15,286 nt of DNA from a virus (taxonomy: Duplodnaviria; Heunggongvirae; Uroviricota; Caudoviricetes): positions 1-15,286 of the IMG/VR virus record IMGVR_UViG_2711768167_000011; one strand, written 5' to 3'. The first letter of the stretch is position 1. Each line of letters opens with the position of its first letter. The notes under the pieces are model-generated. The model did no database searches. It had not been told where the DNA came from and saw only the letters and a list, made by a program, of their open reading frames with translations. A program made the translations under genes and the position numbers. Positions 1,407-15,286 of this stretch are shown piece by piece.

Positions 1407-2597
1407 TTATATAGCTGGTGACTCTTTTCGAAGAGCATCAAGGTAGTCAGCGTACCATTGCATCATTTCTCGTCTTCCTTCAAGGTAACGAGCATGGTTG
1501 TATGTACCACGAATGCTGTTTTTGTCCGTATGTGCAAGTTGCATTTCAATCCATGCACTATTGAATCCTTGCTCGTGTAGAACAGTACTCATTGTATGAC
1601 GAAATCCATGCCCGGTAGCTTTTTTGTCATAGCCAATCTTCTTCAAAACCATATTGACGCTTGCATCGCTGATAGGCCTGTTAACATCATTTCTTCCGGC
1701 AAAGATGTATCTGTATCTTCCAGTCAGTTCTTTGAGGATTTGCAGAGACTGGATTGCCTGATCTGACAGAGGGACGATATGCTCCTTCCTCATTTTCATC
1801 CGGGTCGGAGGAACTTCCCATATCTTTTGGGTAAAATCGATCTCACACCATTCCCCCATACGTAATTCTACTGTTCTCAGCCCTGTGAGCATCAACAATT
1901 TTGTAGCTTCACGGGTTACAATACTGCCGGTGTAGTTTTCGAGTTTGTATAAAAACTCTGGTAGTTCAGGAGGAAGCAGGAAAGGGTAATGTGTTCGCTT
2001 ATAGCTTTTCATTGCTATAACCAGATCAGAAGCTGGATTGTATCGTGCCCGACCTGTAACAATGGCATACCGAAACACTTCACCACATCGTTGGCGAACT
2101 TTATTAGCTAGCTCGCAGGCTCCTCGGCTTTCGATACGCTGAAGAACTGCGAGAAGTTCAAGAGGTTCGATTTCACTAATGGGTCTGTTTCCAATGTAGG
2201 GAAACACATTATTTTTGAATGCTCTGTCGACATAATCAGCGTAGCTGGCAGACCAGCCTGAAACTTTTGCGTTGTACCACTCGGTGGCGATTGCGGCAAA
2301 AGTTCTTCCTTCGGAAAGGTTTTTCTCAAGATTTTCAGCTTTCTTGACTTCACCGGGATCTTTACCATCGGCATGTATTTTCTTGGCTTCATCCCGACGT
2401 TTGCGAGCTTCAGCCAATGTAATAGTTGGATAGGTGCCAAATGATAGTTTCTTTTCCTTCCCCGCATAGTGGTACTTCATTCGCCAGTACTTTGAGCCGT
2501 TAGGATTGACCTGAAGGTAGAGCCCACCACCATCGGCAATCTTATAAATTTTATCTTTGGGTTTGGCTGTTTCAACTTGTCGAGCTGTCAGTGGCAT
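1407..2597 (-). CDS. P4-type tyrosine integrase (396 aa)
   Basis: ORF-track 405-aa ORF; preferred start is ATG at 2597 (MPLTARQVETAKPKDK...) with GAGG 7 nt upstream, since the track start at 2624 is TTG. P4-Int-like N-terminus (KP.DK...DGGGLYL.V.P.GSK.WR) and C-terminal catalytic signature GHGFRHT ... RGTYNHARY. Confidence 0.9.
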   Translation of the reverse strand: MPLTARQVETAKPKDKIYKIADGGGLYLQVNPNGSKYWRMKYHYAGKEKKLSFGTYPTITLAEARKRRDEAKKIHADGKDPGEVKKAENLEKNLSEGRTFAAIATEWYNAKVSGWSASYADYVDRAFKNNVFPYIGNRPISEIEPLELLAVLQRIESRGACELANKVRQRCGEVFRYAIVTGRARYNPASDLVIAMKSYKRTHYPFLLPPELPEFLYKLENYTGSIVTREATKLLMLTGLRTVELRMGEWCEIDFTQKIWEVPPTRMKMRKEHIVPLSDQAIQSLQILKELTGRYRYIFAGRNDVNRPISDASVNMVLKKIGYDKKATGHGFRHTMSTVLHEQGFNSAWIEMQLAHTDKNSIRGTYNHARYLEGRREMMQWYADYLDALRKESPAI

Positions 2598-2940
2598 CTG
2601 GGGGCCTCGCAATAGATTGACCAAGATGTGCCCCTAAATAGGCCCCCAAATGTGACTTGATTTACGTTCCCCTGAGGAGAATTAAGGCGACTATTTGAGT
2701 AACATAAGTAAGGGTATGTGCTGATTATAAAGGCTTTTTGTGGGGTATGGTAGATTTCAGGAGAGGTGTGCATGGTGTCCCTGCAGAAATCATCTTAATT
2801 ATTATTATGTTGATTTATATGTAGTTTATTTTTGATTTTTTGTTTTTGTACCCGTTTTGTGCCCGTTTTATTCGATTCCCAATTTAAACTTCGATTCTAG
2901 AAAGGTGAGTAGGGGAGGTTGTCATTTCATGTATCATTAT

Positions 2941-3644: not shown

Positions 3645-4916
3645 CTATTCTTTCCAGTCAATCCCATCCAGTAAGCACCCTGCCTCATATTGCCCAACAA
3701 CCCAGTCAAGATTGCAGGACTCATAGAAAGCGAGGCGATTATACTGTGGCTCGTTTTTTACCAGACCACGAACGGAGCCGCGTTGCCAGTACAGGCACAG
3801 ATTGGCAAGAGGTGTGATCAGCACAGCATTGTCCGGGAAAAATGGAACGGTCACAGCCGGAAGATTCCCCAGCACGGGCTTTTTAATGATTTCCTCGTTA
3901 AGCAAAATTTCCTGATTCATCTGCGATGGATCAAGACGGTTTATCAAAGGCCATTGTTTACGGACCAGAGTATTGTGACTGCATACGGCCACAATGCCTT
4001 CCTGCCACTGTTCATCAATCATGGATTGCCAGGCATCCAGAACAAGTGCATCTATTGTATGGTGTGTACCGCGTGTATTGCTTGTCGGCGATGAAACAGA
4101 AAGACCGCTGATAACCCTTCCCGCTGCTTCGTTTCGAAACTTCTGCAACCATCCGACGCCGCAATCGTCACGGCCCGGATATGTTTCAGGATCAGATTGA
4201 TCGGCATAGTGTGTGCCGTTAAAACCAATCTGAATTAAATCCAGCCATTTCCGGCGTTCAAAAGCGGCACGGGCGCTTCCTTCAAGACCATTTGCGGACG
4301 CGTGAGCATCGACATTGTCGTAGCTCAACGCAAAATCAAAATTAACCTGCTCGCAGCGGTAGCCTCTTGAAACCAGTGAATGCGCCTGTAGTGGCGAACG
4401 GCGCTCGTGAGGTGGCGATGTACGTGCCAACGGCCCCGAAGCGTCTACCAGCACAACCTGACCTGATATATCCGTAACAGGCACGGGGGTTATTTCAGCA
4501 AGGAAATTTGCCTGCCATCCACTGGCAAGCGTTGCACTCTGGCGGGGAACGGGTTCAACTTCTGACGAATAGCGCGCAGTATCACCGGAAAAGTGCAAAT
4601 CCTTCGGATGTTTTCCGGTTATCGACTCGATAGCGCAATTGAAAACCATCTGAGACTGTTGATTTCGTTGTGATACAACATAATCAGCAGTGCAATTATA
4701 ACACTCAATGCCGTCGTTATTACCCCCACCGCTTGCAGTATGCAGGGTGTGAAGCTCAAGCTCACGCTCCAGTTTTTGATATTCATTGTCCAGCGCGCGA
4801 CGCGTCTCATCGCTTATGCTTGCTGTGTTTGCTTTCAGGCGATTCCGGGACATTAACTCCCTGAGTCGGCTCACTATATCAGCGCCGTGCAAATGTGAAA
4901 TATTCAGACCGCCCAT
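3645..4916 (-). CDS. hypothetical protein B (423 aa), downstream gene of the two-gene operon
   Basis: ATG at 4916..4914 overlaps the upstream gene stop (TAATG); corresponds to Met48 of the 470-aa ORF-track entry. Long uninterrupted frame; no Walker A, HNH or PP-loop consensus seen by eye. Confidence 0.7.
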   Translation of the reverse strand: MGGLNISHLHGADIVSRLRELMSRNRLKANTASISDETRRALDNEYQKLERELELHTLHTASGGGNNDGIECYNCTADYVVSQRNQQSQMVFNCAIESITGKHPKDLHFSGDTARYSSEVEPVPRQSATLASGWQANFLAEITPVPVTDISGQVVLVDASGPLARTSPPHERRSPLQAHSLVSRGYRCEQVNFDFALSYDNVDAHASANGLEGSARAAFERRKWLDLIQIGFNGTHYADQSDPETYPGRDDCGVGWLQKFRNEAAGRVISGLSVSSPTSNTRGTHHTIDALVLDAWQSMIDEQWQEGIVAVCSHNTLVRKQWPLINRLDPSQMNQEILLNEEIIKKPVLGNLPAVTVPFFPDNAVLITPLANLCLYWQRGSVRGLVKNEPQYNRLAFYESCNLDWVVGQYEAGCLLDGIDWKE

Positions 4917-5626
4917 TACTGCCACCCCCGGCAGAGTTCTCTGCCCTCCGCAAGGTCGCGCATTTTTTCTGGATTCTGTCGCGCCGCGCTCCATTGTACA
5001 GGTGAAGGGGCGTTCCTGATTGCGTGGCTTACCGAATCCGGCAGTTTCTCCGGGCAATAACGAAGCGGATTGGAGGCATCGCTCTCAATATCGTTAATCC
5101 GGCCGCGAATCAGCCTGACACTTTCAACAATATCTGCCACTTTCAGTGTTTCACATATTTTCTTTTCTGCGTTATACAGCGGCTGGCCAAGCAGCTCACA
5201 TAAACCACGAATCAATAACAGAGCAGGGATCAGCTCGTTAATCAGTCCGGGAAGTGCTTTTGCAAATATCTCTGCCCGCAACTTATTATCAATGCTTTCG
5301 TAAGCACAGCCAGCCTCTGCCGCGTTATAACGACACTCCAGTAACATGATGCGCGCCTCATCATGCAATACCCGCAGACGCTCAAGATTTTCTCGCGCCA
5401 CACCCGCCTGAATGGATAATTTTGCGGAGGCTTCCGTTTTTGCGCCCAGCGCAGACAGGATTGAGTTCTGCCAGTCACGATCGAGAGACTCCAGCTCCCC
5501 TTTCGTCTGTTCGATAGTCGCTTCCAGATTGGTGATTAATGATTCCTGTTCGCTGAGTTTTGCGCTGGCCGTATCAAACTGTGCTTTACATGCCTGATGC
5601 TTGGCGCTTGCCTGAGTTATATCCAT
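4916..5626 (-). CDS. hypothetical protein A (236 aa), predicted helical/coiled-coil N-terminal half
   Basis: ATG at 5626..5624 with AGGAG 6 nt upstream (rc of 5633..5637); heptad-like charged/hydrophobic N-terminus (LSEQESLITNLEATIEQTKGELESLDRDW); stop TAA at 4918..4916 overlaps the start of gene B. Confidence 0.7.
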   Translation of the reverse strand: MDITQASAKHQACKAQFDTASAKLSEQESLITNLEATIEQTKGELESLDRDWQNSILSALGAKTEASAKLSIQAGVARENLERLRVLHDEARIMLLECRYNAAEAGCAYESIDNKLRAEIFAKALPGLINELIPALLLIRGLCELLGQPLYNAEKKICETLKVADIVESVRLIRGRINDIESDASNPLRYCPEKLPDSVSHAIRNAPSPVQWSAARQNPEKMRDLAEGRELCRGWQ

Positions 5627-5676
5627 TGTTTGCTCCTGTAATACATTTTTTACTTACGCGGATTTTTTCCATATTG

Positions 5677-5735
5677 CGTAATACATTCCAGCCGATTTTG
5701 TTCTCGTAATACGCTCACAATACTGTTGTATTACG
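5677..5735. promoter_or_regulatory. divergent promoter/operator region with GTATTACG-family repeats
   Basis: CGTAATAC at 5677..5684 and 5705..5712, GTATTACG at 5728..5735; the last two form a perfect 8-bp inverted repeat with a 15-bp spacer. Sits between the start of gene A (5626, minus) and the small plus-strand gene (5791). Confidence 0.4.
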
Positions 5736-5790
5736 CTTTCTTATATCGCGGGTGTTAAATCCAGGCATAAGCAATCAGGGAGGCAACACG

Positions 5791-6024
5791 ATGAAAAAAC
5801 AAAAGAAAATGCGATACGTATTACGCTGTATTCGTATCCCGCACGAAATCGACCATAAAATAAATCAGATATGTGAGGACAGAGAGATGAACTACTCCCA
5901 GTGCGTCAGAATGTTTATCAGTCAGGGAATTAAGGCCGGGGAAACGCAGGAAGAAGACCGCAACGGGCGCAATGTAGCGGGGGATGTGTGGGCCTGGGCA
6001 AATGACCAGAACTACACGACGTAA
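5791..6024 (+). CDS. small DNA-binding-like protein (77 aa), possible ribbon-helix-helix regulator
   Basis: ATG at 5791 with GGGAGG (5777..5782) upstream; the ORF-track start at 5752 is GTG without an SD. Predicted beta-strand then helices (MRYVLRCIRIPHEIDHKINQICEDRE...), judged by eye only. Confidence 0.5.
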   Translation: MKKQKKMRYVLRCIRIPHEIDHKINQICEDREMNYSQCVRMFISQGIKAGETQEEDRNGRNVAGDVWAWANDQNYTT

Positions 6025-6074: not shown

Positions 6075-6257
6075 CTATGAAGTTTTCAACTTCCTGCGCT
6101 TAGTGATGCGTACAAACGACTCAAGCGTACAAAAACAAGCCCCACACTCAATATTATTGCACTGGTAATACGTTTTGTAGATGTTTTGTTCGTGTTCTTC
6201 CAACGAACGACTACGGGTTCGGGTTGAAGCGCCACAGGCCGGGCAAGGGAAAGACAT
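6075..6257 (-). CDS. Ogr/Delta-family zinc-finger transcriptional activator (60 aa)
   Basis: Four-Cys pattern CPACG...(22 aa)...CNNIECGACF with the conserved YYQCNN-type core of P2 Ogr / P4 Delta as recalled; ATG at 6257 with AGGAG 8 nt upstream. Confidence 0.7.
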   Translation of the reverse strand: MSFPCPACGASTRTRSRSLEEHEQNIYKTYYQCNNIECGACFCTLESFVRITKRRKLKTS

Positions 6258-6618
6258 ATCACGCTCCTCTTACTGGTGTGAAATTTGACCTATTATATCT
6301 TCTGCCGCCCCCTCTGGCTGTATCAAATAAACCCGCAGCAGTCGCCGCGTATTACGCACGGACGCACCGTTCCCATGCTCACTCGTCACATTCCCCGTAT
6401 CAGTTCTCTCTTACCGTAAGAACGGCTCTGGCTGGCGATAAAACTAACCCGGTCGGGCATTCCCGCAGTCTTTAGAGAAAATGTAATTTACCCCCTGAAA
6501 CGCGGGCTGTTCCCCCGTCACCTGCGCGCGAAAAACTCACCGTTTTTTGTGCACGCACGAAATCGCCCTCCGGGTGCGCCAGTACTGGGCTGGATGGGCA
6601 AAAAGTTACTCTAAAAAA

Positions 6619-6645
6619 TTGTGCAAATTTGTGCACTTTTGTGCA
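6619..6645. promoter_or_regulatory. three phased TTGTGCA direct repeats (putative operator or activator site)
   Basis: TTGTGCA at 6619, 6629 and 6639, exactly 10 bp apart; a fourth copy at 6547..6553. Confidence 0.3.
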
Positions 6646-6871
6646 GATGAACAATAGCGTGAAAAAGAGTGCTTTTGAGAGATTTTTTATGGCAACTGCG
6701 CCGCGTGTATTACGTTTTTTACCATCCCCGCCGCGCATGTACATACTTCATTTTTCTGCCAGACAACAGGGCAACTCCCCGTGACTGACAGCCCCAAAAA
6801 ATCAATGATTGATGTTGCATTTTTGTTAAAGGTTAGACCAGTTGTTTTAGGGCTCTGCCTCATAATCCGGT

Positions 6872-7185
6872 GGGGGGTGCGCAAAGCGGTTACAACGGTT
6901 ACAACACTCAAAAACACCACTTAACAGCATGATTTTAATGGATATTGTTTGTAACCGCTTTGCGGTTACACTGCGGTTACAACGGTTACAGGTTTCAAAA
7001 AGCACTTTATTATCAATCAATTAAAAACTTAACCTGTAACCGCCTGTAACCTAACAAAACGGTTACATGTAACCGCGTTGTAACCGCTTTTGTAACTCAT
7101 CGGACCAGTTATAATATATTGATATATAATACAAAAATAAGTAATTTTAAATTTGTAACCGTTGTAACCGCTTTGCGCACCCCCC
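6872..7185. repeat. iteron array (14 copies of GGTTACA/TGTAACC) bounded by 33-bp perfect inverted repeats; candidate replication origin or recombination substrate
   Basis: IR-left 6872..6904 is the exact reverse complement of IR-right 7153..7185, extendable to 36 bp with one mismatch. GGTTACA at 6888, 6897, 6964, 6975, 6984, 7061; TGTAACC at 6950, 7035, 7045, 7068, 7079, 7154, 7163. Internal palindromes GTAACCGCTTTGCGGTTAC (6951..6969) and GGTTACATGTAACC (7061..7074). Confidence 0.6.
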
Positions 7186-7380
7186 CCCAAACTTTAGCGC
7201 GACCCTTTAAAATGTTAATTAAACTCACTTACTCTGTATCTCTCTCGTTAACTTTCTGTTATTGAAATGTATCTCTCCACTGTTTGACTCTTTCTCATAA
7301 TCAGGGGAAGCAAAAAATTGATGGCGGCACTACTGCAATATGGCCACCATTGCATTGCTGTTACCGTTGGTTCTGGCCAA

Positions 7381-7412
7381 CAAAAAAGGTCAGCGGGAAA
7401 CTGACCTCTTTT
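7381..7412 (-). terminator. rho-independent terminator downstream of the primase-integrase operon
   Basis: 7-bp stem AGGTCAG (7387..7393) / CTGACCT (7401..7407), 7-nt loop, flanked by A6 (7382..7387) and TTTT (7409..7412), so bidirectional in form; about 25 nt past the integrase stop at 7437. Confidence 0.6.
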
Positions 7413-7436
7413 GCTGTGAATGCGGCGTTCTGCGGG

Positions 7437-8441
7437 TTACTCTGCTGGCTCTTTTTCTTCGGTGATCACTATGTTGGCTACCGGGTTAAATCTCATGGCA
7501 TCTGCCAGATAATCCGGTGCAAAATGTGCGTATGCCATAGTCTGCTGAATTGTCGCATGCCCAAGGATTTTTTGTAGCGCAAGAATGTTGCCACCGTTCA
7601 TCACAAAGTGACTGGCGAATGTATGCCGCAATACATGCGCAGCCTGCCCCCTCGGTAAATCGGGTTTTATTTTTTTTAATGCCCGGCAAAACTCTCTGTA
7701 CTTCACATCAAACAGTCGCCCGGTTTCTTTTGTTTTTACGGCATCGCATATTTCCTGCGACACAGGCACCGTTCTTTTTCTACCGTTTTTGGTTTCCAGA
7801 AACGTTATTCTGTTATGAACTATTTGCTCTCCATGCAATCTGCTGGCCTCACTCCAGCGGGCTCCGGTACAAAGACACAAGAGCGCAACCCTTCGTTGAT
7901 CTCCATTCAGCCCGTCAAGCAACAATGTGACCTCGTTTTTTGATAAAAAGGCCATTTCCCGCTGCTTTACATAAAGAACAGGAATACCACGAACCGGATG
8001 CTCTGCATCCCACAAACCGATCTTTTTCAGGGCTGTAAACATCCCCGATAATCTGTTCATGTATCTGTTTGCTGAGGACGGCTTTAATCCTTCCGCAATT
8101 TTCTGCGATCGCCATGCAATGATTTTTAATTTGTTGAGTTCTGCCGCAAACATGTCAGCTCCAAGCTCATTAATAATTTTGCCAAGTTGCTGTTTATCCG
8201 TGTTTGCCTTTCGCCTGTGCTGACCGTGATAGACCCACCACAATTCCAGTAAATCGCTAAGCGTTCTCCGGTCGCGATAGCCCTGTATAAACTCGCGCTT
8301 TTCGGCGTTCGCTATGATGTACCGTTCAGTTGCTGTAGCTATCGATTTTTTGTCAAATATTCTTCTGATGCGCTTCCCTTTACGTCCGCATGGCCTGATA
8401 TCGAGCAGCCACCGCCCATCATGCATCTTTCTGATCGGCAT
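7437..8441 (-). CDS. P2-type tyrosine integrase (334 aa)
   Basis: N-terminus MPIRKMHDGRWLLDIRPCGRKGKRIRRIFDKKS closely resembles recalled P2 Int (DGRYEVDIRPTGRNGKRIRRKFDKKS); catalytic HVLRHTFASH and C-terminal Tyr (QTMAYAHF). Start ATG at 8441 with AGGAGG upstream; the ORF-track start at 8477 lacks an SD. Confidence 0.85.
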   Translation of the reverse strand: MPIRKMHDGRWLLDIRPCGRKGKRIRRIFDKKSIATATERYIIANAEKREFIQGYRDRRTLSDLLELWWVYHGQHRRKANTDKQQLGKIINELGADMFAAELNKLKIIAWRSQKIAEGLKPSSANRYMNRLSGMFTALKKIGLWDAEHPVRGIPVLYVKQREMAFLSKNEVTLLLDGLNGDQRRVALLCLCTGARWSEASRLHGEQIVHNRITFLETKNGRKRTVPVSQEICDAVKTKETGRLFDVKYREFCRALKKIKPDLPRGQAAHVLRHTFASHFVMNGGNILALQKILGHATIQQTMAYAHFAPDYLADAMRFNPVANIVITEEKEPAE

Positions 8442-8443
8442 GT

Positions 8444-11113
8444 TTAACTCCCCTCCTTGTAACTGAATATCCGGCATTTCAGTACTTCCGGCTCTCTGGC
8501 CTCGGCGACCCCTCTTCCGGCGTTTGCCTGTCTGGAGACCTCACTACGAATGGTTTTGCGGCCTGTCAAAGGTCGGGAACGTCCGGCTGCGAGCAACTCA
8601 ATCATTTCGCGGTCAGTTCGGATCTCCACGCGGTGGATAGCGGCAGCCTGTGCCAGTTGCGGAATACTGATAGCAATCCCCTCGCGGCATCCCTTGCCGT
8701 AGTGGTTTACACCGTATTTTGTTATGCCGTCCAGATAGTCGAACGCCTCCCAGAACGCTATTACTTCCGGCAAGTCATCCGTTACCGCTTTAACTTGTTC
8801 CGCTGCCATTCGTTCCAGTTCCTGGCATGTGGCATTAAGCCATTCATCCGGGATATCAATAACGCATTTCAGCGCCCTGACCAGCGCAATAAGTTGCGCG
8901 TGATTTTTGGCAATACGGGGATGGAGAATATTTTCGCAACCGCAAAGGCGGGTCGTTTCAGGCTCTGAGAGCGCCAGAAACATTTCCATAATTGCCCGTT
9001 CACGGCTGACTGCCCGATGAATAAACCCTGACACCTTCTCAACGGGGTAGAGTTCCAGTCGTCTCGCCGCCAGCCGGGTATCAGACGAGTGGCGCTTTTT
9101 ATCGGTATATATGCGAATCAGTCGCTCAATAATTGCAAGTGAGGCGTTTACCCTGGCATTCTGTGCAATCACGATAGCGCCCTTAAAATCCGGGTCATAG
9201 GTGTTGTTATTGTTGGTCTTAACGCCACGAACGCCGATACCGCCGCCGTTATAGAGGCTTTTCAGGTTATCGAAGTCAAACGCACCTCTTTTTTGCGCAT
9301 TGCCTCCCCGGTCTGCTTCAATCAGAACAACAGGTAATCCGGCGACCTGTCCAAAGGTGCGCTTCCAGCCCGCCTCTGATCCTTTGGTTGGATCAACGCC
9401 TTCATAGTTGTCACGACCGCACAACCGCCAGCAAAAATCAATCAATGTTGATTTACCCGTTCCGGGCTCCCCGGTGACTTCAAGGAAGGGGAAGGATTCT
9501 TCTTTATCCCGGATTTGTTCGCTGAACAGGGAGCCCAACCAGAAAGCCAGGGTAATAATTCCTTTTTCACCAAAAGCCAGCCAGAGATCTTCCACCCAGG
9601 ACTCTGTAAACTCATCCGGTTTTTTGTAGTTAATCTGTAATGTGGGTTTTTCGCTTAATGGTTTTGCGTTTATGCCATCAATTTCAAAATAATCTTCGTC
9701 ATTGATTTCATAAGTTTTTCCCTTGTAAACAGCAATATCATTAAACAGCCATGCCCCAATCGCCTTGTTGTATCCGATAAAATCCTGACCAATAACCTCT
9801 TTTATTGCGGGAAGGTCATTTTTTATTAATGCGTCAAGGTGCGCAGTTGTTCCGGTATAAATGCCGCCTTTTGCCACATGCAACAGGCGTTTTTTAAATT
9901 CAGATGCGGATGTCAATTGTCCTGATGTAAAGGTGTTTTTCACCGTAGCACCATCCGGGAACGTAACACGGAAGTAATACCATGCTTCATCCGTGTCATT
10001 ATTTCGAATGTAATAAAGCGGCGCTGGGTTACAGTTTGCGATTTCTTTTACTGCGCCAGATTCCTTAAGTGCAATTTTGCGCGCTTCATCCTCATCAACA
10101 CTTCTCTCATTCTTGGCACGCTCTACAGCTTTCATATAGCGCTCAATGTCCAGTTTGAACCAGAAAACACGGTTATCAAAAGTAAAATGAAATTCCTTCC
10201 GCTCACGAAAGGAAAATATTATTAGCGCCTTATCTCTCGGAGATTTCGCCAGCAATAAATCACCGTAATGACGGTATCTTTTCACATCATGGCCACGCAG
10301 CTTTCCGGCGATGTGTAAATCATTCCAGTCGCGTTTATTGTTGTTTTTACCTGGCAACGCCGCTGCCGTTCTCCAGCCGTCTTCGGCGCTGCGTTCTGCA
10401 TGTTTTTTCGCGTAACGCTCACCCGCACGCCCGTTATCCAGCGCCCACACAATAACCGGACGGGGATTATCCCCGCACAGCTTCGCCAGCTCTTCCAGCG
10501 CCTTATCAGGGTAGTTCACGGCAGACATGACAGAAACGGCCGCAATGCCATTCTGGTTAAGGCTGATGGCATCAAAGATGCCCTCACAAATCCAGATTTC
10601 TTTGGCCTTGCTTAAATCTGCTCCCGGATAAGCCCACCACAACCCCTTGTAGCTGCCGGAAAAATTCGCCTTGCGCGCGAAGCGTCCCGGTCTGTCTATG
10701 ATGCGCTCCCACCACACGCCGTCAGCCAGCGTAAAACGCACAGTAGCGGCCTGTTCGCCGTTTTCCTTGTCCTGGTATCGCTCCTGAGTAAATGCGCCCT
10801 TCAGTGGCCCCACAGCAATATTGCGCGCCTCCTGAAGATAAGCTGCCACCGCTGCATATGGCTCGTCTTTCGTGCTGATATAACGATCTGACCATGATGA
10901 AAACACATCCGGGTAAAGTTCTTTGGTCAGCAGGTCTGTACCGCATTTATTTTCGCGCCCACAGTGTACGATGTACGGCCTTTCAAGGCTGGTAAACAAC
11001 TCTTTCTTTCCACATTGCGGACAAACACCATACCGGAGGTAGTTATTTTCTTCTTTGAAGTTGTAATCACGGATAAGACGGTTAATAATCTCTTTTCTGA
11101 TGTCAGATTTCAT
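8444..11113 (-). CDS. bifunctional primase-helicase (P4 alpha-like / PICI pri-rep-like), 889 aa
   Basis: N-terminal zinc-binding CPQCGKK...HCGRENKCG, Toprim-like ICEGIFDAISL, P-loop GEPGTGKST and Walker-B-like VVLIEAD. ATG at 11113 with GGAG 8 nt upstream preferred over the GTG at 11137. Confidence 0.85.
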   Translation of the reverse strand: MKSDIRKEIINRLIRDYNFKEENNYLRYGVCPQCGKKELFTSLERPYIVHCGRENKCGTDLLTKELYPDVFSSWSDRYISTKDEPYAAVAAYLQEARNIAVGPLKGAFTQERYQDKENGEQAATVRFTLADGVWWERIIDRPGRFARKANFSGSYKGLWWAYPGADLSKAKEIWICEGIFDAISLNQNGIAAVSVMSAVNYPDKALEELAKLCGDNPRPVIVWALDNGRAGERYAKKHAERSAEDGWRTAAALPGKNNNKRDWNDLHIAGKLRGHDVKRYRHYGDLLLAKSPRDKALIIFSFRERKEFHFTFDNRVFWFKLDIERYMKAVERAKNERSVDEDEARKIALKESGAVKEIANCNPAPLYYIRNNDTDEAWYYFRVTFPDGATVKNTFTSGQLTSASEFKKRLLHVAKGGIYTGTTAHLDALIKNDLPAIKEVIGQDFIGYNKAIGAWLFNDIAVYKGKTYEINDEDYFEIDGINAKPLSEKPTLQINYKKPDEFTESWVEDLWLAFGEKGIITLAFWLGSLFSEQIRDKEESFPFLEVTGEPGTGKSTLIDFCWRLCGRDNYEGVDPTKGSEAGWKRTFGQVAGLPVVLIEADRGGNAQKRGAFDFDNLKSLYNGGGIGVRGVKTNNNNTYDPDFKGAIVIAQNARVNASLAIIERLIRIYTDKKRHSSDTRLAARRLELYPVEKVSGFIHRAVSRERAIMEMFLALSEPETTRLCGCENILHPRIAKNHAQLIALVRALKCVIDIPDEWLNATCQELERMAAEQVKAVTDDLPEVIAFWEAFDYLDGITKYGVNHYGKGCREGIAISIPQLAQAAAIHRVEIRTDREMIELLAAGRSRPLTGRKTIRSEVSRQANAGRGVAEAREPEVLKCRIFSYKEGS

Positions 11114-12283: not shown

Positions 12284-12699
12284 TTTGGCGGCTCCTTCTA
12301 CTGATTTACGGAGTCTCGCCAGCACGCTGCTAAACATGGTGGCGGGACGTAACAGGGTTAGCAGACTGGCGTAGAAGAAACCAGCGAGCGCAAAGGCTCC
12401 CCCATTACGCCCCGCCATAATACGGGGTAGGGTGGAATTACGGGCACAAAAAAACCGCATTACGGAAATATAGCGGCTACCCGCTTCTACTATCAGGCTG
12501 CTAAACCCGGCACCCGCTTTATGAGGTGCGGGCAAACGATACGCCATGACAAAAAAGCGAGTCAAGCAATATTGCAAATTATTTTTGGGCGATTGCGCTG
12601 AGTGATTGATTTTTAAGAGTAAAAAAGTCATAATCATTTCTGGCTATTGTTTCTTATTGTTGATTTCAGGTGCACTAAATGCACATCCTTGACTGGTTG

Positions 12700-14023: not shown

Positions 14024-15286
14024 TCAGTCTGTTTCGTTAGTCCATTTAAAATCATAGGGGGAAATATATGCCGTCTTGCAGGTGTCGAGATAATCAGCCC
14101 ACCATTGCAACATTCGGCGGCGTTCCTGCATATGTTCAGCTCTGTGAACGTATGCAGCCCGGACACTGCCTCTTTCCCTGTGACTCATCTGAAGCTCAAC
14201 GGCTTCTCTTGTCCACCTGCCTGACTCTGTCAGCGCCGAACAGGCCATGGTCCTGAATCCGTGACCACAAATATCTTTTTTTGTGTCGTATCCCATGTGG
14301 CGTAATGCCTTGTTAATGGTGTTTTCGCTCATTGGTTTTATCTGGTAATGGTCGCTGGGGAAAATAAACACTTCATCACCGGATATATTTCTTATATCGT
14401 CAAGAAGCTGCATGGCCTGAGTGGGTAAAGGGATGGCGTGAGGGGTTCCCATTTTCGTTCCACGATATGAATATTTTACGCCTTCTATTTTTTCGCGTTC
14501 TGCTGGTATTACCCACATTGATTTATCAAAGTCAATTTCATTCCAACGAGCAAAACGCAATTCACTTGAGCGAATAAAAATTAATAAATTTAATTTTAGT
14601 GCAAATTGCGTTAATAACCGTCCATTCATCTTATGGTGGTAATCATTTATTTTGCCAAGTAATTCAGGTAATCGCTCAAGGGGAAGAGCGGGGCGATGTT
14701 TGGTTTTATTAGTTTCGATTGCACCGTTCAGTTCCTGCGCTGGATTGTATTTAATCATTCCATTCTGTACAGCGTAGCGCATAATGGCGTTCATTCGCTG
14801 CTTGTTACGTGATGCTGTCTCAAGCACTCCTTTGTCTTCCATTTTGCGTAAAGGAATCAGTAGATCCATGGTTGTGATCTCGTTAATTGGCCTTTTACCA
14901 AGAATGGGGAAGATGTGGTTTTCCAGGTCTTTTAAGACTTTTTGCGCGTGTAATTCGCTCCACCCCTTTTTCCGGCTGTGCCATTCTCTGGCAACGTCTT
15001 CAAAAAGCACTATTTGAGGTTTTGGTGTGTGCAGTGGGTCAATGCCTTTAGCCAGGCTCGCCAGATATTCATCACGAGCGTTCCTTGCCTGTGCAAGTGT
15101 TACGGCAGGATAAATGCCTAAAGCTCGGGTCGTTTCTTTACCGTTGATAACCTTGCGAAAGCGCCAGTATTTTGAGCCGTTGGGGTGAACATAGAGATAC
15201 AGGCCTTTCCCGTCACGAAGTTTTTTAATTTTATTGTTGTCCTTATCTGGTTTGGCGTTACGTACAGCTATATCAGTCAGTTTCAT
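14024..15286 (-). CDS. P4-type tyrosine integrase (420 aa)
   Basis: N-terminus MKLTDIAVRNAKPDKD...GKGLYLYVHPNGSKYWRF typical of P4-family integrases; catalytic GHGFRTMA and C-terminal RAAYVHRAEH; the start codon is the last 3 nt of the window, so RBS and upstream att lie outside. Confidence 0.9.
   Translation of the reverse strand: MKLTDIAVRNAKPDKDNNKIKKLRDGKGLYLYVHPNGSKYWRFRKVINGKETTRALGIYPAVTLAQARNARDEYLASLAKGIDPLHTPKPQIVLFEDVAREWHSRKKGWSELHAQKVLKDLENHIFPILGKRPINEITTMDLLIPLRKMEDKGVLETASRNKQRMNAIMRYAVQNGMIKYNPAQELNGAIETNKTKHRPALPLERLPELLGKINDYHHKMNGRLLTQFALKLNLLIFIRSSELRFARWNEIDFDKSMWVIPAEREKIEGVKYSYRGTKMGTPHAIPLPTQAMQLLDDIRNISGDEVFIFPSDHYQIKPMSENTINKALRHMGYDTKKDICGHGFRTMACSALTESGRWTREAVELQMSHRERGSVRAAYVHRAEHMQERRRMLQWWADYLDTCKTAYISPYDFKWTNETD

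Follow-up and report, generated by a model that had tools for sequence, protein, structure and literature searches.

A 320-bp iteron module linked to a phrog_1139 primase is the probable cis-acting replication site of a P4-like satellite

What is a dense array of 7-bp repeats doing in a non-coding gap of a satellite genome, downstream of its primase gene? The array lies in a 15,286-nucleotide stretch of viral DNA (hereafter the window, meaning the whole stretch analysed) that is 99% identical to a tRNA-Arg island of Escherichia coli ECCNB12-2. The element is a P4-like satellite, and its primase does not belong to the alpha family. On the minus strand, a P4-type integrase gene (14024-15286) is followed by an AlpA-like regulator gene, an Icd-like region, small ORFs and the primase gene. 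Past the primase come a recombinase gene (rec), a non-coding gap of about 690 bp with the array, a 90-aa ORF (6472-6744) and an Ogr/Delta zinc-finger gene (6075-6257), and beyond these the genes for a coiled-coil protein and a P2-family capsid homologue; MazEF is encoded on the plus strand. The element extends from the tRNA-Arg to about 2900, which places the array in its interior. An iteron origin beside its initiator is a well-known kind of element, and a sequence-only reading of this DNA had proposed the array as a replication site of the adjacent primase. The linkage between array and primase and the covariation between the two, described below, support that proposal. The module that contains the array probably serves the primase encoded by the satellite as its cognate cis-acting site for replication, most likely as the origin.

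The window contains 17 copies of GGTTACA, both strands taken together, against 1.58 expected, and none of 200 shuffled sequences reached that number. Thirteen exact copies are packed between positions 6888 and 7169, six as GGTTACA on the plus strand and seven as TGTAACC, i.e. on the minus strand. The earlier count of seven and seven must be corrected to six and seven exact copies, but its total of 14 holds if one includes TGTAACT, which has one mismatch and is replaced by an exact copy in three relatives (L005, L006 and L007). The tandem pairs and palindromes reported earlier are indeed there, with GGTTACAACGGTTACA at 6888-6903 and 6975-6990, its reverse complement at 7154-7169, and the palindromic pair GGTTACATGTAACC in the second half of the array. 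As a C precedes 12 of the 13 exact copies, the iteron unit can be extended to (G)CGGTTACA(A). With up to one mismatch allowed, there is no second iteron cluster in the window, where the background is 0.6 matches per 300 bp and the maximum elsewhere is three. Among five E. coli variants, 73% of the columns in iteron cores are invariant, compared with 37% of the non-core columns (Fisher p = 2e-8). The distance to the primase stop codon (8444) is about 1.26 kb, in line with the 1.3 kb estimated before.

The array is bounded by an inverted repeat of 36 nt whose arms are 97% complementary, and together they form a module that also includes two AT-rich blocks (Table 1). The sequence-only reading had placed one AT-rich stretch next to the array; the stretch is real, but the array encloses it. 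The second block, the inverted repeat, the extended unit and the presence of rec between primase and array were all absent from that reading. Each block contains a match to the IHF consensus used here, WATCAANNNNTTR, which identifies such sites by sequence only; of 22 arrays, 15 carry a match of this kind, where 0.85 would be expected. The TGATATATAA core of block 1 is conserved in alignment A1, and the ATTATCAAT core of block 2 is invariant in it. No DnaA box (TTATNCACA, up to one mismatch) was found in 6745-7436, and Rfam detected no RNA family across the array, whose strong single-strand fold (z = -12.6) is due to the inverted repeats. The part of each arm that lies beyond the terminal iteron pair (6869-6887 and 7170-7188) includes a G-run and the motif T(C/G)CG(G/C)AAA. 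This motif is conserved across genera and stays the same when the iteron changes (also in L005, L009, L010, L002 and L027).

Table 1. Coordinates of the module, its repeats and the neighbouring genes in the window
Feature	Position	Strand	Remarks
Whole origin-like module	6869-7188	.	320 bp, 61% A+T, inverted repeats at both ends
Primase-distal arm	6869-6904	+	G-run, GCGCAAAGC, iteron pair 9 bp apart
Two tandem GGTTACA	6888-6903	+	6888-6894, 6897-6903
Single iteron	6950-6956	-	TGTAACC on plus strand
Three GGTTACA	6964-6990	+	starts at 6964, 6975, 6984; spacing 11 and 9 bp
AT-rich block 2	6991-7034	.	75% A+T
IHF-consensus match TATCAATCAATTA	7011-7023	+	in AT-rich block 2
Two iterons	7035-7051	-	7035-7041, 7045-7051
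Palindromic iteron pair GGTTACATGTAACC	7061-7074	.	GGTTACA from 7061, TGTAACC from 7068
Single iteron	7079-7085	-	
Degenerate iteron TGTAACT	7091-7097	-	14th copy, one mismatch
AT-rich block 1	7097-7152	.	82% A+T, candidate unwinding element
IHF-consensus match	7112-7124	-	in AT-rich block 1
Primase-proximal arm	7153-7188	-	iteron pair, GCTTTGCGC, C-run
Two tandem iterons	7154-7169	-	7154-7160, 7163-7169
rec gene	7437-8441	-	334-aa P2-Int-like tyrosine recombinase, between primase and array
Primase C-terminal domain	8447-8698	-	residues 806-889, proposed iteron-binding domain
Primase gene	8444-11113	-	phrog_1139; 889 aa from ATG at 11113; proposed initiator

As for the primase, its domains run from a Zn-ribbon through Toprim and a P-loop NTPase to the C-terminal domain, and it matches phrog_1139 over its full length (E = 2e-297). 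The closest phage primases are those of ESSI2_ev239 (51%), RSY1, Dobby and phiCTX, all Peduoviridae. BLASTP against P4 alpha aligned only the Walker A (27 aa, E = 2e-4) and Toprim (E = 0.004) regions, in the same order. On these similarities, the primase is a member of the phiCTX/ESSI2 family and only remotely related to P4 alpha. Comparison with solved structures gave weak matches to the Toprim domain of DnaG and none to the origin-binding domain of P4 alpha. A helicase activity is suggested by the Walker A motif, a sub-threshold match to DUF5906 and the short match to P4 alpha. In the searchable literature, the coverage of which is limited, we found no description of an origin for a phrog_1139/phiCTX-type primase.

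Relatives were collected from GTDB genomes, from contigs encoding chosen homologues and from IMG/VR. A module of the same plan accompanies a phrog_1139 primase in 43 scored satellites and P2-like phages, so that the comparison with related islands suggested earlier bears out the association across genera. The plan begins with a G-run followed by T(C/G)CG(G/C)AAA and an iteron pair. An AT block and mixed iterons come next, then a second AT block, further iterons and a spacer, and at the far end an inverted iteron pair and a C-run. The module adjoins the primase in satellites of E. coli, Yersinia, Salmonella, Enterobacter, Klebsiella and Pectobacterium, and it is also found in P2-like prophages of Providencia and Proteus, one of which (L009) has a portal gene downstream. 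The primases of module-bearing relatives are 52-94% identical, and the orientation of the module relative to the primase gene is constant. In many of them the array directly follows the primase, and in L008 and L028 the module is located between primase and rec. In phage ESSI2_ev239 it is found 4.5 kb upstream of the primase, nearer the integrase gene (L002:520-835). Within E. coli, the gap (692 bp) was found in 66 of 5426 complete genomes, always on the chromosome; the module occurs in 62-66 of these genomes, at a median of one place per genome and a maximum of two. We found no meaningful overlap between ESSI2-type origins and the satellite as co-residents of E. coli genomes. No TxACA arrays were present in the fetched flanks of more distant primase relatives from Pseudomonas, Ralstonia and Burkholderia (37-49% identity). 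In Paraburkholderia (L014), the gene for a 46%-identical primase is followed by two clusters of a 20-bp palindrome, CATCGTCAGAAATGACGATG, about 700 bp apart (8776-8855 and 9550-9748), which may represent a differently built counterpart of the origin. Two Providencia loci contain 2.5 and 1.5 modules in tandem (L011, 8760-9700, and L020, 8850-9350) downstream of a single primase gene, and these modules differ in their iterons, GGTTACA and CGTTACA.

The iteron is not the same in all relatives, and where it changes it does so in concert across the array. Arrays of GGTCACA are found in L007 (E. coli STEC313), L031, L032 and L040, GGTAACA in L034, CGTTACA in L011b, YATTACA in L010 and L012, and CATCACA in L033 and ESSI2; further elements have YGTTACA throughout. 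Such concerted change is what would be expected of a set of sites evolving together with the protein that binds them. In the L007 primase, 12 of 23 unique substitutions fall within the last 115 residues, which are also the most variable part of the protein. L007 and ESSI2, both with TCACA-type iterons, share a Thr at position 877, where TTACA elements all have Val or Ile (in the window Val877, codon at 8483-8485). When 22 primases are aligned, a single column out of 918, that of residue 877, distinguishes iterons with T at base 4 from those with another base: Val or Ile goes with T, and Thr accompanies C or A. The idea had arisen with L007 and ESSI2; for the test, four homologues (P0024, P0034, P0028 and P0016) were then selected solely for the presence of Thr877. 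All four proved to be associated with non-T iterons (GTCACA, GTCACA, ATCACA and GGTAACA, i.e. C, C, C and A at base 4), and the nearest relative of each, at 73-88% identity, has Val and a TTACA array. Another 21 elements from IMG/VR fit as well (Val goes with T in 20 of them, Thr with C in the remaining one), so that the rule holds in 43 of 43 elements, across at least five independent switches. The relationship is a correlation, and specificity may depend on further residues as well. Several columns that separate the variants of iteron bases 1 and 2 were also seen, among them residue 863 (His or Tyr where base 1 is not G), but the independent lineages were too few to retain them.

These observations lead to the following model. 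The C-terminal domain of the primase (approximately residues 806-889) would read the 7-bp iteron GGTTACA, and the 14 sites, spaced by 7-11 bp within clusters and arranged with overall dyad symmetry, would gather many primase molecules on the module. A host bending protein might act at the IHF-consensus sites of both AT blocks and wrap the DNA. The block with 82% A+T (7097-7152) would be the place of melting, where the P-loop motor and the Toprim primase could be loaded and prime synthesis. The overall dyad symmetry would suit bidirectional loading.

The systems to which the module can be compared resemble it to various extents. According to the P4 record, the type I octamer is TGTTCACC, in agreement with the sequence-only reading; the octamer is bound by alpha and forms pairs 9 bp apart in crr. 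In P4, crr is a required helper site immediately downstream of alpha, and initiation occurs at ori, 4.5 kb away. Like P4, the element is a P2-dependent satellite with a primase composed of Zn-ribbon, Toprim, P-loop and C-terminal domain. Its iterons, 7-8 bp long, are found on both strands and include pairs 9 bp apart, and their block is located downstream of the primase gene as for crr. The P4 core GGTGAACA also bears a loose resemblance to GGTTACA. However, the initiator is of the alpha family there and a phrog_1139 protein here, and P4 has two sites 4.5 kb apart, whereas the window has one cluster. Over 15 kb, TGTTCACC has one exact match and 15 one-mismatch matches, which are scattered, form no cluster and do not fall in the array. 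Moreover, crr has direct repeats of 120 bp, which are missing here, where the 36-nt inverted repeat and its G-runs bound the module instead. Iteron, initiator family and number of sites all differ from those of P4, and the module is therefore not a member of the P4 system. The parallel with P4 drawn earlier thus needs amending on two counts, since the primase is not of the alpha family and, by analogy of position, the P4 counterpart would be crr rather than ori.

The parallel with phage-inducible chromosomal islands (PICIs, SaPIs) that was drawn at the same time stands: functional PICI origins lie 3' of pri-rep and consist of an AT-rich region with iteron sets on its flanks (PMC6092414). In the module, too, iteron sets flank AT-rich DNA on the 3' side of the initiator gene. 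Nevertheless, the initiator belongs to another family, the helper is P2-like rather than lambdoid, the iterons are shorter and of mixed orientation, there are two AT blocks instead of one, and a recombinase gene is inserted between initiator and origin.

The iteron origins of plasmids and phages such as pSC101, R6K gamma and P1 oriR also combine multiple initiator-binding repeats with an AT-rich unwinding region and an IHF site. Plasmid iterons are direct repeats of 17-22 bp read by a dedicated Rep protein, usually together with DnaA boxes. Repeats, AT-rich DNA and IHF-consensus matches are all found in the module, but its units are of 7-9 bp and in both orientations, it has no DnaA box, and the proposed initiator is a primase. 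Short units arranged as dyads around AT-rich DNA are known from the GAGGC pentamers of SV40 large T and the E1 sites of papillomaviruses. In these viruses with SF3 helicases, a DNA-binding domain attached to the replicative motor reads the units of the origin. The likeness suggests head-to-head assembly and bidirectional replication by analogy, with no claim of homology between the DNA-binding domains, and the 14 sites of the module are far more numerous than those of the viral origins.

Which other roles could the array play? Since the P4 block downstream of alpha is crr and not ori, position alone does not prove that replication starts within the module. It might be a crr-like cis element, that is, a replication enhancer bound by the primase or a copy-number site acting by handcuffing, with synthesis starting elsewhere in the element. 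The same location downstream of the primase gene and the octamer pairs of crr, 9 bp apart, in both orientations and distinct from ori, speak for such a role, and plasmid iteron arrays that titrate initiators are well known. Nonetheless, the window offers no second iteron cluster as the true origin, and the module itself has features of a start site, namely the iteron-flanked block with 82% A+T and the IHF-consensus sites. PICI origins of similar design are self-sufficient (PMC6092414). We therefore consider the crr-like role unlikely. Another possibility is that the array is an operator or regulatory array that controls transcription instead of replication and binds another protein, for instance the Ogr/Delta-like activator, the product of the 90-aa ORF or a protein of the helper phage. 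It does lie upstream of the minus-strand 90-aa ORF and ogr/delta genes, and weak promoter-like matches are seen in and beside it. These matches number three, however, which is not above the 2.0 expected from shuffled sequences, and the module occurs in phage contexts that lack those neighbours (L009, ESSI2). Fourteen sites arranged as dyads with AT blocks would be atypical of an operator, and a column that follows the iteron was found in the primase alone among the proteins compared. A regulatory array is thus very unlikely. As to a MITE-like non-autonomous mobile element with 36-nt terminal inverted repeats, such termini are present, the position of the module relative to neighbouring genes varies and tandem copies exist in L011 and L020; yet no target-site duplication was seen at the module ends, the internal iterons covary with the primase, and the module is confined to few E. 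coli genomes at one or two places each, every inspected locus being beside a phrog_1139 primase. We regard this as extremely improbable.

The neighbouring rec gene deserves closer attention, as the repeats might be bound by its product, whether as arm-type sites in an attP, at a resolution site or at the ends of an invertible switch. The gene ends 248 bp from the array, its product is 53% identical to the integrase of the P2-like phage ESSI2_ev239, and in P2-type phages attP adjoins the 3' end of int; furthermore, 248 bp separate the arms of the 36-nt inverted repeat, a layout that would fit an invertible element. Against this, six satellites have the module and no rec homologue in the locus (L010, L012, L026, L027, L029 and L033), in a seventh (L034) rec is reduced to an 82-aa remnant, and in L009-type prophages the rec-type integrase gene lies beyond the primase, at a distance of about 5 kb from the module. 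Neither do rec alleles follow the iteron: among E. coli satellites with the same iteron, primase identity is about 90%, against only about 50% for rec, and conversely L005 and L007 have rec proteins that are 90% identical and iterons that differ. Only two columns of rec separate iteron types, both with mixed residue sets. All 65 full E. coli matches consist of a single colinear piece, and hence no inverted version was seen. The repeat that adjoins int in ESSI2 and L009 is a different one, GTCCACA, and no arm sites of P2 Int resembling TGTGGACA were found in 6700-7500. Invertible switches of the fimS type are found in both orientations and in obligate linkage to their recombinase, and integrase arm-type repeats track the integrase and sit at the attachment site; the module does none of these. 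The alternative named in the sequence-only reading, arm-type sites bound only by an integrase, is accordingly disfavoured, and any role as rec sites is highly improbable. Because the module is present without rec and changes in step with a primase residue, it is to the primase that we tie it.

With the module taken as the primase's replication site, a cis-acting site is assigned to phrog_1139, a widespread primase family that serves P2-like phages as well as a class of Enterobacterales satellites. The 320-bp fragment should permit the construction of mini-replicons, and the many iteron dialects suggest that replicon incompatibility or cross-talk is a force in the evolution of satellites and their helpers. 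It is tempting to go further and speculate that the primase C-terminal domain and the iteron module constitute an interchangeable specificity cassette, common to P2-like phages and the satellites that exploit them, in at least eight dialects. One residue, 877, would set the base accepted at position 4, and both the repeated, independent switches and the tandem modules of different dialect in L011 and L020 would result from selection to avoid or exploit cross-replication and incompatibility. We put this forward tentatively, as a possibility that is less likely than not; if true, it would amount to a simple recognition code for a whole initiator family.

Several other features of the element came to light. 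The satellite with rec also encodes the P4-type integrase, and TGTATCTCTC occurs twice (7235 and 7268) in the 248 bp between the rec stop codon and the array (7189-7436). Four copies of TGCACAA lie within and downstream of the 90-aa ORF (6526-6875), together with the palindrome GTGCACAAATTTGCAC at 6621-6636, and L010 and L012 have similar TGCACAA repeats after the array. The divergent intergenic region between the genes at 4916-5626 (minus strand) and 5752-6024 (plus strand) contains five copies of GTAATAC (5626-5975), which are kept in L005, L006 and L019 and may be a set of sites for a regulator, perhaps Ogr/Delta. The P2/P4 cos sequence GGCGAGGCGGGGAAAGCAC has no match with up to three mismatches in the whole window. 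A second P4-type integrase gene (1407-2624, minus strand) is followed by DNA of 24-30% G+C (1-1200); positions 1-2900 correspond to a separate island that abuts the MazEF end of the satellite and is absent from that place in a 99% identical E. coli locus (L001). On the minus strand, Rfam matches to the C4 antisense RNA (12335-12422, 73 bits) and to isrK (12448-12529, 50.6 bits), which overlap the ORF annotated as Icd-like, indicate a P4-type RNA immunity region. Finally, the 423-aa homologue of the P2-family major capsid protein (3645-4916, minus strand; Pfam E = 1.5e-73) and the adjoining 236-aa coiled-coil protein without family match (4916-5626, minus strand) occupy the position of P4 sid and psu, and this pair is kept in satellites of Klebsiella, Enterobacter, Yersinia and Salmonella (L010, L012, L024, L027 and L033).
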